Shown: in pieces, positions 4,676 to 9,311 of the stretch
Layout: each line of letters opens with the position of its first letter
How positions within the stretch are numbered: the first letter of the stretch is position 1
Program-made: the position numbers and the translations under genes
The notes under the pieces: model-generated
Told to the model about the DNA's origin: nothing
Seen by the model: only the letters and a program-made list of their open reading frames with translations
Database searches by the model: none
From: Candidatus Woesearchaeota archaeon
Lineage (GTDB): Archaea > Nanobdellota > Nanobdellia > Woesearchaeales > UBA10216
Direction of reading: 5' to 3'
NCBI GenBank assembly: GCA_016180085.1
Contig: JACPBX010000032.1
Location: forward strand, 1-22,744
Length of the DNA: 22,744 nt

Positions 4676-5556
4676 AGCGACCTTACCACTTTTTCAATTT
4701 CATTAGTAATTCTCCTGTAATCAGAGCGATTGCCAAAAATAACAGGCTTGCCGAAGGTTACTGACACAACCCCATATTTTGGCATCACACTCCCCTTAGG
4801 CAATATTGAGTCTGTCCCTCGAATCCTGACTGGAACCACAGCAACATTCAACTTGGAAACTAGAAAGCCTATACCAGGCTTAAACCTTTGAATTTTCCCA
4901 TTCTGACTACGGCTGCCTTCAGGGTAAAATAAAACGTGCCATCCTTCATTAATGAGCTTTGCTGTCCGATGCAGGCTTGTGTAAGAATTTTTCCGTGAGA
5001 AAGGGTACGCGTTCACTAATAGGGAAATAAATGAACCAAAAAAGGGGTTTCTGTACATGTAATCCTCAGCTGCAGCTACTGCCGTTCTTTTCCGAAAACT
5101 GCCGGGCAGGCTTGCAAGAATGGCTACCGTGTCAAGGTGGCTTGAATGGTTGGCAACAAAAATAACAGGTTGGCCTTTTGGAATAATCTGGAGAGCTTCT
5201 TTGTTAGTTGTGAGAACTTTCATTAAAAATCCAGCCAAAAAGAAAACGGTCCTTTGCAGGATAAAGCGGGCTGGTAATGCCATTGAACTGTGACACCACG
5301 CCCACACATACCGTTCTTTTTGCTTGCTACCAAATGGCAACTCCAAAAGCCGGGCAAGATCTCCAACTGAGGTGAATTTATTAATACGCCTCTCATCTAT
5401 CAAATTCCCAAATTCCTGCTCAATCCGGGCAACAAGCTCAATCCTATGCAGGGAATCCATTCCTAAATCGTTAACAAGAGAAGCTCTAGACTTGATTCTC
5501 CTGGCAGGAACTTCAAGAATCTGGGTCAAGATTCTACGCAATCTTCTGTTCTGCAT
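4672..5556 (-). CDS. Fusion of acyl carrier protein (N-terminal) and PlsC-like lysophospholipid acyltransferase (C-terminal)
   Basis: ACP motif LGMDSL...EL...IEQEFG with the phosphopantetheine Ser; acyltransferase blocks NHSSHLD, PFSR, YPEGSRS, FKPG, VPV.I.G. Confidence 0.92.
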   Translation of the reverse strand: MQNRRLRRILTQILEVPARRIKSRASLVNDLGMDSLHRIELVARIEQEFGNLIDERRINKFTSVGDLARLLELPFGSKQKERYVWAWCHSSMALPARFILQRTVFFLAGFLMKVLTTNKEALQIIPKGQPVIFVANHSSHLDTVAILASLPGSFRKRTAVAAAEDYMYRNPFFGSFISLLVNAYPFSRKNSYTSLHRTAKLINEGWHVLFYPEGSRSQNGKIQRFKPGIGFLVSKLNVAVVPVRIRGTDSILPKGSVMPKYGVVSVTFGKPVIFGNRSDYRRITNEIEKVVRSL

Positions 5557-6204: not shown

Positions 6205-6784
6205 ACCTGAAATGAAAAGGCTGAGAGACGCCCACAACATCCTCAAAAGGCTTCGGGAAGCAGACATCATCCTCGTAAGCGAGAAAGGGCTGCTACATGA
6301 CATCAACAGGATGCTGCAAAGGAGCAAGTGGCACCACGTAATGCTATATATCGGGAATGGCCGCACAATCGAAGCCACCCCGAAAAAAGGCGCCCACATA
6401 TGCGACCTCATGTATGACCTGACAGAAAAGGAATACTTTGCCTACAAAGTCCTAAGGAATAAAAGGCTCACCAAAGCGCAAAGAAAGAAAGTGGTCAGCA
6501 TGGCACTGAAATTCTTTCTTGGCAAAAAGTTCTCCTGGGGGCAATACGCCAGAATCGTGCTTGGAAGGACGCTGCACTGGAGAAACGAGGGAAACAAAAG
6601 CCTCGTATGCAAACCTGGGCACAGGTGCAGCATGGAAAACGTGGCATGCTCCAACATGGTGGCAATGGCATATTACGAGGCTGGCCTGCCTGTAACCGAG
6701 CGCTACATGCCCGAGTACGTTGTGCCAAAGGACTATGAAACGTCAAAGGCGCTTTCCGTAGTTTCTGAAGGCAGAATAAAATGA
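6194..6784 (+). CDS. Permuted papain-like NlpC/P60 enzyme (YiiX/YebB-like), copy 2
   Basis: ADIILV...SKWHHVMLYIG, LGKKFSW, ACSNMVAMAY...G, VPKDY. Start moved from 6149 to ATG 6194, overlapping the end of copy 1. Confidence 0.82.
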   Translation: MRLRPEMKRLRDAHNILKRLREADIILVSEKGLLHDINRMLQRSKWHHVMLYIGNGRTIEATPKKGAHICDLMYDLTEKEYFAYKVLRNKRLTKAQRKKVVSMALKFFLGKKFSWGQYARIVLGRTLHWRNEGNKSLVCKPGHRCSMENVACSNMVAMAYYEAGLPVTERYMPEYVVPKDYETSKALSVVSEGRIK

Positions 6785-6998
6785 TGCAGAACTATCAGAA
6801 ACAGATTGATGAACTGTTGAAGCAGTACAGCTGATAAAGGTTTTAAAAATGGCACAAATAAGATTCTAAGCACTACAACCAAAGAGTTTACTGTGAGCTA
6901 AACTTTAATTAGAATTTCATACTCCTAATGCAAAACAGTTCAAGGTTGTGGTTCAGAGGAGGCTACTCTGAAAACTTCGCCACACCCATACTTATTTA

Positions 6999-8207
6999 TT
7001 ACATTATTGGGTTGCCGCGGCACGACTGTAACCCTAATTTTCGTCGTTCAAGGTATGTTGGTTCATGTAAAAGTTTATATAAGTCGTTCATCGTTATGTA
7101 ATCCCAAATGTGCGATATTCCGAATTCTTTTCTGATGTCTTTGCCACTCGGATAATGCCCGCTTGAGATTTCTTTTTTCATATAAGTCAGAATATTTTCA
7201 ATAGCGGCTCTGAAAAGGCATTGGTCGAGTTTAGGGTTTCTTCTTCCTCCAATTTTATTCAATGGAGGAATTATGTTGGCTTCCTTGTAAATATCCAAAA
7301 CAGATTTAAAATAAGACCTAGTGTCTAACTTTAAAGCCTTATTTATGTCATGAACGTACACTTCTCTTCCTTTAATTAAATTTTCTTTAAGGTAGTCTAC
7401 GATGAGCTTTTTCTTTCTTACTTTTTCATCAGTTTCTTCATGGACTGAGGAGTCTCTTATATATTGAATTTTTTCGATTTGATCATTGCTTAAAAGCGGG
7501 AGCACATCTTCATAGAGCTTAATGCTGATACCACTAACGCCGCTAATTTTACTCTCTATCTTTGATGTTGTGGTCATTAGAATAATTTCGTGAAATCCTT
7601 GCTTAAGAAACTGTTGAAGTTGTTCAACATTCTTCTTTTTAATAGGCTCGTATTTGTTGAAGGCTTTAAGTTCTACTCCAATTAATCTTTCATTAGTATC
7701 TAAAGCAACCATATCAACGCCTTGCTCATGAATATCATTTATTTCTAATATGCTGAGATCTAACTTATAAAGAACGTCTGCAATTAGTTTGGTAAAGATT
7801 AAAGCTTTGTTACCTTTTAGGTCCTGACTATTTTTCTGTATGTATTTAATACCGGCCTGCAAATAAAATTCTTTAATACTTCTAAAGTAAGTATCCAATC
7901 TTAATTTGAATTTTTGTTCTATAAATCTTCTTGAAGGGTAATGACCTTTTTTGACCTCATTTTTCAAATAATTCAGAAGGTCTTTTCTTACGTGAACATT
8001 TAATTGTTTAGACCTGTGACGGGGGAACTTCAAAAAATCGACATTCAATTGCGAATAGATATCTTCCATATAAATGCCTTTTTGAAAGGCAAACTTAGTT
8101 CTAAGTTCTCTACAAGTTGGAAGATTGCCTTCTTTTACTCTACTTTTGACATAATCTACTATTTTCCGTTTAATTTCTGCCGAACAATTTTTTTCCATTT
8201 TCTTCAT
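6999..8207 (-). CDS. Mrr-like PD-(D/E)XK restriction-endonuclease-fold protein flanked by four helical repeats
   Basis: Central GVD-x13-ELK...V.QL...IILMTTS resembles the Mrr catalytic domain; two ~48-aa repeats lie on each side; AT-rich (hand counts of 30% GC on lines 7321 and 7681). Confidence 0.7.
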   Translation of the reverse strand: MKKMEKNCSAEIKRKIVDYVKSRVKEGNLPTCRELRTKFAFQKGIYMEDIYSQLNVDFLKFPRHRSKQLNVHVRKDLLNYLKNEVKKGHYPSRRFIEQKFKLRLDTYFRSIKEFYLQAGIKYIQKNSQDLKGNKALIFTKLIADVLYKLDLSILEINDIHEQGVDMVALDTNERLIGVELKAFNKYEPIKKKNVEQLQQFLKQGFHEIILMTTTSKIESKISGVSGISIKLYEDVLPLLSNDQIEKIQYIRDSSVHEETDEKVRKKKLIVDYLKENLIKGREVYVHDINKALKLDTRSYFKSVLDIYKEANIIPPLNKIGGRRNPKLDQCLFRAAIENILTYMKKEISSGHYPSGKDIRKEFGISHIWDYITMNDLYKLLHEPTYLERRKLGLQSCRGNPIM

Positions 8208-8215
8208 CTCTGAAA

Positions 8216-8368
8216 CCTCAATCTAACGTTGAAATTTCTCACGCTTCTAACTGAGAAATCTCTCGTTTAGTGAGGAGGACGCTGAGCGAAGCTGCCTAAT
8301 TGCTTTTAGGCGTTAGCCGACCCTGCTTTGCAGGGGAAAAGCATAATTTGGCAGCTCTGCGGTCCTCC
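8216..8368 (-). ncRNA. Candidate structured RNA / 5' leader of the nuclease gene (unknown family)
   Basis: Nested stems 8274-80/8362-68, 8291-96/8350-55, 8301-07/8337-43, 8309-11/8316-18, 8321-26/8330-35, plus a second hairpin with 8234-41/8252-59. A minus-strand TATATAAA lies at 8396-8389. Confidence 0.5.
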
Positions 8369-8388
8369 GAGCCTTTATGAAGAAGTAG

Positions 8389-8396
8389 TTTATATA
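8389..8396 (-). promoter_or_regulatory. TATA box driving the structured leader and nuclease gene
   Basis: TATATAAA on the minus strand, 21 nt upstream of the first base of the terminal GGAGGAC stem. Confidence 0.55.
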
Positions 8397-8411
8397 CCCT
8401 CGCCGGGCACC

Positions 8412-8427
8412 TGTCCAGTGTCCAGTG
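8412..8427 (-). repeat. CACTGGA heptamer tandem motif (CACTGGACACTGGACA)
   Basis: 15/16 identical to 11157-11172 on the plus strand. Confidence 0.7.
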
Positions 8428-8453
8428 CTAATTACAAAAAAAATGTAAAAAAT

Positions 8454-9311
8454 TCAAAATTTCATTTCTTTTAGTCTTTTAATGCGAATATCAAGTGGGG
8501 GGTGCGTTGAAAACAACGATATTAAGCCATGCCCCTTCAATGGGTTTACAATAAACAGGCTTGCTGTTGCCTCGTTGCCCATGCCCATTTTGTGATGCAG
8601 GGCTGCCTTGTCAAGCTTGGCCAGGGCAGAAGCCAAAGGCTCTCCATCCTTTATCGTTGTTGCGCCGCTGTGGTCCGCAAGGAACTCCCTTGACCTTGAG
8701 ATGGCAAGCTGCAAAATCATGGCTATAATTGGGGTAATTATCGCGAGGGCAAGAAGTGCGATGGCATTGCTACCTCCCCTGTTGTCATCGCGCCTGCCGC
8801 CACCAAATATCGCGGCAAACTGGGCCATGTGGGCCAGGTAAGAGATGACGCCAGCTATTGTTGCTGCAATTGTTGTGACAAGAATATCCCTGTTCTTTAC
8901 ATGACTGATTTCATGGGCAATAACGCCTTTAAGCTCCTTATCTGTGAGAAGCTTCATGATGCCCTCTGTGCAGGCAACAGCAGCATGCTTCGGACTGCGG
9001 CCAGTTGCAAACGCATTGGCAGCCTCTGTTGGAATAATATAGACCTTTGGCTTAGGAATGTTTGCAGCTGCAACTACCTCGTCAACGATTTTGTGAAGAT
9101 GAGCATAAGATTTTTTGTCAGCAGGCTTTGCCCTGTACATTGCCAAAACAATCTTGTCAGAGAACCAGTAAGCCCCAAAGTTCATAAGGACTGAGAAGAT
9201 AAGGGCAACAAACAGCCCGGTCTGGCCGCCAATCAGCCTGCCAACTACCAAAAGCAGACCTGTAAGCAAGCCAAGCAGCAGCACTGTCTTTATCTGGTTA
9301 CCAAAACCCAT
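8454..9311 (-). CDS. htpX: Protease HtpX (M48 zinc metalloprotease)
   Basis: NAFATGR.P..A.V..T.G, HEISH (HExxH), ISRSREFLAD, LFSTHPP...RI. Confidence 0.96.
   Translation of the reverse strand: MGFGNQIKTVLLLGLLTGLLLVVGRLIGGQTGLFVALIFSVLMNFGAYWFSDKIVLAMYRAKPADKKSYAHLHKIVDEVVAAANIPKPKVYIIPTEAANAFATGRSPKHAAVACTEGIMKLLTDKELKGVIAHEISHVKNRDILVTTIAATIAGVISYLAHMAQFAAIFGGGRRDDNRGGSNAIALLALAIITPIIAMILQLAISRSREFLADHSGATTIKDGEPLASALAKLDKAALHHKMGMGNEATASLFIVNPLKGHGLISLFSTHPPLDIRIKRLKEMKF

Follow-up and report, generated by a model that had tools for sequence, protein, structure and literature searches.

Woesearchaeota are tiny DPANN archaea. We know of them only from metagenomes and, to our knowledge, almost nothing has been established about their gene regulation. 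Here we describe a structured RNA on the minus strand of a 22,744-nucleotide stretch of DNA from Candidatus Woesearchaeota archaeon (GenBank assembly GCA_016180085.1, contig JACPBX010000032.1, positions 1 to 22,744), which we call the window. The RNA lies between htpX and an AT-rich open reading frame (ORF) for a nuclease-like protein. Along the minus strand, the htpX stop codon is followed by two T-runs, the sequences CACTGGACACTGGACA and TGCCCGGCGAGGG, the TATA box TATATAAA, about 20 nt, a 95-nt domain, a second hairpin, GAGGT and an ATG. A preliminary description of this DNA, made from the sequence alone, offered the RNA as a partner of the nuclease, a translational control element or an independent host noncoding RNA (ncRNA). 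We find that it belongs to a new, previously uncatalogued RNA family, a conclusion well supported by more than 100 copies, strong covariation and the lack of any Rfam 15 match. The features at the locus are listed here in their order on the minus strand.

8454..8491, minus strand: last ~12 codons of htpX, AT-rich and diverged from close kin; a replacement 3' end at the approximate left edge of an insertion
8431..8453, minus strand: T-rich spacer (T6 and T8 runs) 3' of the htpX stop codon, read directly
8412..8427, minus strand: tandem heptamers CACTGGA-CACTGGA-CA (CACTGGACACTGGACA), followed by TGCCCGGCGAGGG at 8409-8397
8389..8396, minus strand: TATA box, TATATAAA
8274..8368, minus strand: domain 1, a 95-nt irregular rod (helices P1, P1b, P2 and P3) with two conserved internal loops, from folding and covariation
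8218..8273, minus strand: hairpin 2, with inner stem GAGATTTCTC/GAGAAATTTC (8262-8231) and a basal stem reaching the Shine-Dalgarno (SD)-like GAGGT
8207..8219, minus strand: ribosome-binding region, with GAGGT (8219-8215) 7 nt 5' of the ATG at 8207
8196..8198, minus strand: conserved ATG, aligned with the start codon of all other cassettes
6999..8207, minus strand: AT-rich ORF (33% GC) of 402 aa, or 399 aa from the conserved ATG; Pfam matches to Mrr_cat (E = 0.0023) and LexA_DNA_bind (1e-4)
6909..6975, minus strand: decayed remnant of the last ~62 nt of the original htpX (...PPL..LE..RSMKF and stop), 24 nt past the ORF stop; right edge of the insertion

The fold of the window copy

RNAfold reproduced the structure noted earlier for the minus strand from 8368 to 8218, with a minimum free energy of -64.4 kcal/mol. 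Dinucleotide shuffles (n = 200) averaged -43.8 ± 3.7 kcal/mol, which places the leader at z = -5.5, and 0/200 were as stable. Every stem named in the preliminary description is present on this strand: GGAGGAC/GTCCTCC pairs 8368-8362 with 8280-8274, followed by GCTGCC/GGCAGC, TGCTTTT/AAAAGCA, CCCTGC-AAA-GCAGGG and GGC-TAAC-GCC, and the second hairpin (8273-8218) ends 8 nt before the ATG at 8207, as had been said. The CCTCA/TGAGG stem of hairpin 2 and the GTCCTCC strand in the first stem compete for two bases. A three-way junction had also been described, and it exists in this copy as a forked tip (P4 and P5), but it is not a feature of the family; elsewhere the tip is in many copies a single hairpin or carries insertions. 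The description of a GC-rich RNA beside an AT-rich ORF needs a similar correction: the ORF is indeed AT-rich, but the leader has 47% GC, close to the genome mean of 48.7% in this 1.0-Mb assembly (G000), so the contrast arises because the ORF is AT-rich and not because the RNA is GC-rich.

The start codon proposed earlier, the in-frame ATG at 8207, is present, but the family-conserved start is the second ATG at 8198-8196. The first one arose when a G-to-A substitution turned the conserved SD (family SD position 8212-8207) from AGAGGT into AGAGAT. In the window copy the predicted unpaired probability is 0.37 for GAGGU, 0.41 for the first AUG and 0.73-0.74 for the conserved AUG. Direct reading of this copy revealed no oligo-T between leader and ORF. 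We also considered a 12-codon ORF inside the leader (ATGCTTTTCCCC...TAA) and rejected it: it is not kept in other copies, and the pattern of change is that of pairing covariation, not coding.

A leader family and its downstream genes

A BLAST search within the genome identified four full leader copies with 79-85% identity, on contigs C18 (the window), C11, C25 and C36, against a single copy of the 402-aa protein. Similarity among the four spans 35 nt upstream of the CACTGGA repeats, the TATA box, both domains, the SD and the ATG, and ends there. Using a covariance model, R1, built from 33 leader copies on a structure set by hand after the fold of the window copy, we found about 38 copies in 17 of the 25 genomes of the archaeal family. 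Across the order, copies occur in 21 of 151 sampled genomes and 20 of 144 genera (records named Woesearchaeota or Nanoarchaeota); one of the 21, G155, is unpublished and contributes locus L075, one row of alignment A3, and none of our conclusions depends on it alone. Scanning a degenerate pattern of the conserved core over one genome per species (185,579 species) gave at least 116 stretches, and 78 of the 80 tested, among the matches listed, are true R1 matches. The records of the listed R1 matches are Woesearchaeota, Nanoarchaeota or Nanoarchaeia, and a few carry apparently wrong labels (Methanosarcinales third-party annotation bins, one Aminicenantes and one Micrarchaeota). A viral origin was considered and dropped: IMG/VR gave two pattern matches, neither of which fits R1, and we attribute both to chance.

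The preliminary description had called for a covariation check of the structure beside nuclease ORFs, and in more than 100 related copies the fold is indeed kept by compensatory changes. In the 33-copy alignment, 89% of cells are paired and 23 of the 52 pairs show double changes (105 cells; 0/500 shuffles), compared with 38-52% of cells paired in slid controls, in which structures derived from a member, as this hand-set one was from the window copy, favor themselves. The alignment of 79 copies from other genomes (A4, from the pattern scan) also has 89% of cells paired, with double changes in 38 of 52 pairs (506 cells; 0/500 shuffles; slid controls 36-51%); it is model-fitted, and positions fixed by the search pattern cannot vary in it. 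Because the tip was misaligned, RNAalifold, run unaided, recovered only the outer helices: it found 13 compensated pairs in a structure made up of P1, P2 and the hairpin-2 inner stem. Covariation in domain 1 extends over P1, P2, P3 and P4. In hairpin 2, all 10 inner-stem pairs show double changes, and a basal pair among the 79 copies reads CG in 27, UA in 26 and UG in 12.

The order of elements in the rod is itself conserved: P1, an asymmetric loop, the 2-bp P1b, P2, a near-helical AAAU/UUA segment and P3. Its consensus, CGCAnAnCtgCnAAAT...TTTT...AAAA...TTAnGcAGnTnnGCTnA, is at least 90% conserved, and the nucleotides at this level are CGCA, AAAT, TTTT/AAAA, TTAnGnAG and GCTnA. Two internal loops, CGCA/GCUnA and AAAU/UUAnG, are invariant. 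The tip is the opposite, with two hairpins in this genus, one in most others and 48-60-nt extra hairpins in several copies. A two-hairpin insertion of ~48 nt (ACATCAAAAGC...CTCTGAC) occupies the AAAU/UUA loop at three loci in different genomes (L035:1489-1712, L037:1489-1713 and L041:250-475), and further hairpins of 50-60 nt are inserted in the tip at L036 and within hairpin 2 at L023. Such insertions may be small mobile hairpin elements.

The preliminary description could not match the RNA to tRNA, 5S, SRP, RNase P, a riboswitch or a group I core, and our searches agree. An Rfam 15 scan of the whole window gave no match at the gathering threshold, and with E values up to 10 the sole match in 8100-8500 was a chance PyrG-leader outside the element. 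Leaders at 18 other loci likewise had no Rfam match, the only scoring coming from flanking tRNAs, and ARAGORN found no tRNA or tmRNA. ToxI-like tandem repeats of ~36 nt are absent; Tandem Repeats Finder reported nothing beyond an A-rich 9-mer and 2.3 copies of the 7-nt promoter heptamer. We saw no variable segment of the kind that serves as guide in HEARO/omega-RNA: variation lies in the helix tip and the hairpin-2 loop, and both ends of the RNA are conserved and either base-paired or SD. Inspection of the internal loops by eye, with no formal test, found no K-turn or bulge-helix-bulge motif. A literature search for RNAs associated with homing endonuclease genes (HEGs) in archaea or DPANN found nothing relevant.

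What follows the leader is less uniform than the leader itself. In the 402-aa protein of the window, four winged helix-turn-helix-like repeats surround a PD-(D/E)xK core that resembles Mrr_cat, and its gene is of the homing-endonuclease type; the protein's homologues at L016 and L099 reach 22.7 bits for Mrr_cat against a cut-off of 21 and also have the leader in front. Among 66 leader ORFs surveyed with Pfam, however, 40 match LAGLIDADG_3 and 2-3 match Mrr_cat, the Mrr_cat ORFs being those of the window and L016/L099, with Mrr_cat_2 found once. Others encode a Phage_endo_I/DUF559 (Vsr-like) protein (L021), proteins with the HNH-associated "homing endonuclease associated repeat" (L048 and L081) and two 23S-rRNA-IVP proteins, and several have a helix-turn-helix match alone or no Pfam match. 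Weak but significant R1 matches (40-50 bits) also precede IS200/IS605-type TnpA genes (L080:1501-1673 and L083:282-426, both minus strand). In every copy with enough downstream sequence, an AT-rich ORF (GC 0.23-0.42, mostly 0.26-0.39) begins at the aligned ATG. None of the copies examined lacked an endonuclease-type ORF directly downstream: four apparent orphans were resolved by TTG or other non-AUG starts or by a frameshift. At these loci, apparent TTG or ATA/ATT-type starts stand where others have ATG in L075:1449-1530 (minus strand, in the unpublished G155), L137 and L154, and the ORF of L124 is frameshifted.

Members of one ORF family stand behind different leader subtypes, and a single leader subtype precedes different ORFs. 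These shuffled pairings indicate that leader and nuclease recombine as modules; the regulatory module and the nuclease evolve as separate parts. The leader is tied to a class of free-standing selfish DNA-enzyme genes and not to the Mrr fold. Not every LAGLIDADG sequence is part of this association. G000 has five LAGLIDADG_3 regions within long host ORFs of 644-1305 aa (C20:15083, C22:20887-21396, C22:133073, C29:42801-43304 and C15:49551-50168), which are probably inteins, and none is at the four leader copies of this genome.

This distribution bears directly on the proposal that the element is a dedicated partner RNA of the Mrr-fold nuclease, whether guide, antitoxin or scaffold. Adjacency, strong structure and the analogy to HEARO/omega-RNA and ToxI are its sole support, and they are equally the sole support for an unrelated host ncRNA beside which the ORF landed. 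A partner of one nuclease would not be expected before LAGLIDADG, Vsr-like and HNH-repeat proteins, nor in four copies for one copy of the protein, and the element has no guide-like segment, no tandem repeats and no Rfam match to HEARO or any other family. The preliminary description had itself named occurrence of the RNA in relatives independently of the ORF as evidence against its proposal; the RNA does occur independently of this particular ORF, but not of the ORF class. We regard both forms of the proposal as very improbable, the host ncRNA also on the evidence of empty sites given below, and for this window the idea of an RNA-guided or RNA-partnered Mrr nuclease is removed. The occurrence before unrelated nuclease folds further implies that any factor binding the leader is host-encoded or a small molecule.

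Promoter and mobility of the cassette

The window contains the insertion site in recognizable form. Its neighboring genes are htpX (M48 peptidase, 8454-9311, Pfam 3e-35), TFE-alpha and a fused PriS/PriL primase, the last two marking the source as an archaeon. DNA homology of htpX to three related genomes (G015, G020 and G017) stops at about 8491, some 35 nt before the htpX stop, and the HtpX C-terminus reads ...LDIRIKRLKEMKF here compared with ...LEARIQRLRSM(K/R)F in kin. The remnant beyond the ORF aligns to the htpX 3' end of G016 with a local score of 44, which 0/500 shuffles reached, and includes the 12-nt exact match ATGAAATTCTAA. In five congeners (G016, G013, G020, G012 and G019) the site is empty: htpX and a convergent NlpC/P60 gene lie ~20-35 nt apart, compared with 1.7 kb in the window, and R1 has no match at these sites even with its filters off. 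On this comparison, promoter, leader and ORF form one insertion of ~1.5 kb, at about 8491-6976 of the window. An independent host ncRNA behind which the ORF inserted, as the preliminary description had alternatively suggested, does not fit relatives whose empty sites lack both RNA and ORF, nor a leader that is never found alone. Oligo-T is an archaeal termination signal, and from that signal the T-rich spacer at 8431..8453 is likely the terminator of htpX.

The same intergenic spacer is variable in other ways. In G015 (L053, C36) it holds a 385-aa ORF at 1034-2295 with an FAD/NAD-binding-type N-terminal motif by sequence, and in G017 (L059, C123) a 349-aa ORF of normal GC at 415-1497; neither has a leader.

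A second insertion is visible on C11, where a cassette of leader and LAGLIDADG ORF (L002/L032) is bracketed by an exact 16-nt direct repeat, TGCCGGGATCGCATAA, at 5504-5519 and 6512-6527. The second repeat copy forms the 5' end of a tRNA-Ser(GGA) gene that contains an intron, and tRNA genes adjoin 3 of 18 other cassettes, which suggests that tRNA gene ends are frequent homing targets. The tRNA genes at or overlapping the 3' end of a HEG ORF are at L100:7505-7590, L095:6352-6442 and L104:4207-4310. We rejected a duplicated target end at C25 and a duplicated SRP54 3' end at C11, for which the alignments were gappy and unconvincing (3 and 14 of 300 shuffles as good).

Each cassette appears to bring its own promoter. 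The CACTGGA motif is invariant in the four genomic copies and, across the order, lies upstream of 86 of 117 leader copies. In G000, CACTGGACACTGGACA-N2-4-TGCCCGGC(T/G)AGGG is also found directly upstream of the TATA box at at least 10 unrelated genes (C36:11946, C36:13713, C15:44964, C42:31056, C33:9674, C5:5149, C3:255, C1:472, C21:2332 and C41:1660); motif-bearing genes include Bro-N-like and toxin-antitoxin-like genes, a tRNA and HEG cassettes. By its placement, the motif looks like a lineage-specific promoter-upstream element or regulator site. A further element, GGACAT(T/C)CCGGAAAnTTTTC, often lies ~25 nt upstream of it. At one of the sites (C36:13713-14010, plus strand), the promoter motif is followed by a tRNA-like 5' fragment (GCGCCGCATAGCCTAGCGCAAGAGGTTGAGATCCGG), a second TATA box and a tRNA-like gene with an apparent extra T-arm segment; ARAGORN called neither the fragment nor the gene.

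Archaeal TATA boxes are centered near -26/-27. Of 117 leader copies, 93 have a TATA-like box, which mostly begins 24-36 nt ahead of the alignment column assigned to the first paired base, and this spacing together with the known archaeal position places the predicted transcription start at the base of P1 (about G8368 in the window), in agreement with the preliminary description. We saw no TATA box inside the leader; a single conserved one lies upstream of the whole leader.

A transcript beginning there could end early. Domain 1 might be released as a stable trans-acting small RNA (sRNA) of ~95-100 nt, by termination at a U-tract or by processing, with the HEG mRNA arising by read-through. Domain 1 is a closed, self-contained fold. 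Among 78 copies from other genomes, 44 have a run of T5 or more at the end of the P1 3' strand, directly behind a very stable hairpin, which could act as an attenuator. Nevertheless, the window and the rest of its family, f1, have no T-run at this position (CGTCCTCCTCAC), and where a U-run exists it pairs with the 5' A-run within P1. Nor did we find target complementarity elsewhere in the genome, which contains only the four copies and matches to the promoter motif. We consider release of an sRNA improbable.

Function of the leader and its known counterparts

Our preferred reading, to which we assign a probability of roughly 0.6, is that the element forms the untranslated 5' leader of a HEG cassette, mobile and free-standing, and limits or gates nuclease expression. 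Of the possibilities raised at the outset, translational control thus remains the best, in a wider, order-wide form that is not specific to an Mrr-fold nuclease. The cassette would consist of a replacement htpX 3' end, a T-rich terminator, a lineage-typical promoter, the leader of ~170 nt, the SD and ATG, and an AT-rich nuclease ORF; promoter and leader would be the constant module and the ORF, mostly LAGLIDADG and here Mrr-like, the interchangeable one. Transcription would start at the first base of P1, burying the 5' end in an irregular rod of ~40 bp that could shield a poorly translated, AT-rich mRNA from 5'-end-dependent decay. Sequestration of the 5' end in a long structure is a classic protection against such decay, as in the ompA 5' untranslated region (UTR). 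Hairpin 2, lying against or over the SD, would then keep translation of a potentially toxic nuclease low or gated. Stability alone does not account for the deep conservation of the rod's internal loops, whose invariance suggests a common host factor or ligand that would read the rod and set the state of hairpin 2.

The geometry of the leader accords with this scheme. Its spacing is fixed both to the TATA box upstream and to the SD and ATG downstream. Within the main clade, the 3' arm of hairpin 2 enters the SD (AAAACUUUGGAGGU), with a median predicted SD unpaired probability of 0.19 and an open AUG, and in the TnpA-linked variants hairpin 2 is AUCACCU/AGGUGAU and buries the SD fully. In the window copy, whose family SD is mutated, the new ATG at 8207, 9 nt upstream of the conserved one, may use the GAGGU at the hairpin base; by this model the copy may be under tighter repression, or in decay.

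Several points weigh against our preferred reading. In family f1, to which the window copy belongs, the consensus SD is not part of the hairpin but follows its stem immediately, with an unpaired probability of ~0.44-0.5, so SD occlusion, as modeled, is not universal in the leader family. A weak promoter or SD would suffice for simple down-regulation, and the model alone leaves the conserved rod unexplained. Furthermore, we infer the transcription start, the co-transcription of leader and ORF, and any processing from sequence. Finally, wobble counts do not favor the sense strand: core helices hold 65 A.C/C.A cells compared with 10 G.U. In addition, the reverse complement has the more stable predicted fold for 115 of 119 copies and the better score against the consensus structure for 68 of 78.

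This last point is also the argument for placing the selected structure on the opposite strand, as a cis-antisense RNA against the HEG leader (compare IS10 and IS200), or in single-stranded or cruciform DNA. Transposase and toxin genes are often under cis-antisense RNA control. Still, the conserved promoter, fixed spacing, SD and ATG are all on the sense strand, and the antisense side, which falls in non-homologous ORFs, has no conserved TATA box. R1 scores the reverse strand at 24-33 bits compared with 130-194 bits. The hairpin-2 basal stem taken alone has 62 G.U cells to 23 A.C and a clean C-G / U.G / U-A series of the sense type, and on the sense strand most mismatches pair two pyrimidines. 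The edges of the cassette fall beyond the element, which leaves it no apparent role in recombination as DNA. The sense strand is A-rich, and the asymmetry may stem from that composition and mutation bias. We therefore abandoned strand assignment by G.U versus A.C counts and by sense versus antisense energies, the results being contradictory and likely confounded by the A-rich composition. Selection for structure on the opposite strand or in DNA seems to us quite unlikely, more so than release of an sRNA.

The alternative with the most in its favor refines the cis-acting leader rather than contradicting it. Here domain 1 would be an aptamer or protein-binding operator and hairpin 2 its expression platform, and all free-standing HEGs of a cell would be switched together. 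The most conserved positions across many families of the order are the internal-loop and loop-flanking nucleotides, the helices covary, and the tip tolerates replacement and insertions of 48-60 nt, like the peripheral elements of functional RNAs. The adjoining hairpin varies in how far it covers the SD, and one module serves unrelated proteins. Domain 1 is, with P1-P4 and its invariant loops, a covarying structured domain such as an aptamer requires, which is necessary but not sufficient for a riboswitch. Opposed to this, the conserved part is a rod and not a junction or pseudoknot, there is no ligand or protein candidate for the putative binding, and we found no conserved mutually exclusive pairing, alternatives beyond CCUCC/GGAGG not having been searched systematically. 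That one, a switch between CCUCC of the P1 3' strand and GGAGG of the SD, was rejected, as it is lost in copies whose P1 is GGGCAC/GUGCCC or GGGAAC/GUUCCC. We hold such sensing to be possible but doubtful. The more ambitious claim, that domain 1 is a new archaeal sensor RNA, a riboswitch or host-protein operator through which one signal gates every free-standing homing endonuclease and some transposases, is a shade less probable still. Binding of a ligand or host factor by the rod, if real, would reveal how nuclease expression is coordinated by the host or by the selfish elements; as a sensor, the RNA would be a shared "master leader" captured by unrelated selfish nuclease genes and exchanged by recombination.

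Known systems share parts of this arrangement. HEARO/omega-RNA of IscB and TnpB is likewise a large conserved structured RNA beside a mobile-element nuclease gene, but it is a guide with a variable segment, bound by one RuvC-type protein family, whereas the leader precedes protein-only homing endonucleases of several folds and lies between promoter and start codon. The 5' UTR of IS200 tnpA has a stem-loop that sequesters the SD; like hairpin 2 of the TnpA-linked variants, it buries the SD of a mobile-element DNA enzyme, but this bacterial system consists of one small hairpin and an antisense RNA and has no counterpart of domain 1. The E. coli ompA 5' UTR is a portable mRNA stabilizer, a bacterial, single-gene element that acts against RNase E. 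It resembles the leader in architecture only, with two hairpins, the first at or near the 5' end and the second by the ribosome-binding site (RBS), and it works on heterologous coding regions.

What is new here is that one homologous RNA, together with its promoter, would serve as a portable expression module for LAGLIDADG, PD-(D/E)xK and HNH-linked nucleases and apparently IS200-type transposases. Model R1 also provides a sequence handle for locating free-standing HEG cassettes, and the sites that they target, in the genomes of DPANN archaea.

For the insertion itself, the closest parallel is in fungal mitochondria, where mobile ORFs (mORFs) carry a replacement gene C-terminus, as in Allomyces atp6 and Glomus atp6, atp9, cox2 and nad3 (PMC3630166). 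As in the htpX cassette, a foreign 3' end is followed by an endonuclease ORF and then by the native 3' end as a remnant; unlike the cassette, mORFs usually share the reading frame or the transcript of the host gene and have no dedicated promoter-leader module (PMC3630166).

For the leader, the closest parallels are the RBS-sequestering or RBS-adjacent hairpins that control T4-type HEGs, including I-TevI, I-TevII, I-TevIII, segB, mobE and seg43(25) (PMC2988022). There, too, a stable RNA structure directly 5' of the endonuclease ORF covers or abuts the SD, and the genes are selfish insertions beside conserved host genes, some with their own promoter (PMC2988022). Placement of the SD inside a stem 5' of the start codon is found in our main clade and the TnpA-linked variants and partially in the window copy (0.37). 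Family f1, whose SD immediately follows the stem, resembles seg43(25) from Aeromonas phage 25, and the occluding forms resemble I-TevI, segB and mobE (PMC2988022). The T4-type hairpins, however, are short and gene-specific and act through the choice between an upstream and a hairpin-internal promoter (PMC2988022); we did not see an internal promoter in the leader. The leader is instead a homologous family of ~170-nt, two-domain RNAs with conserved loops that, together with its promoter, is common to unrelated nuclease folds across an archaeal order.

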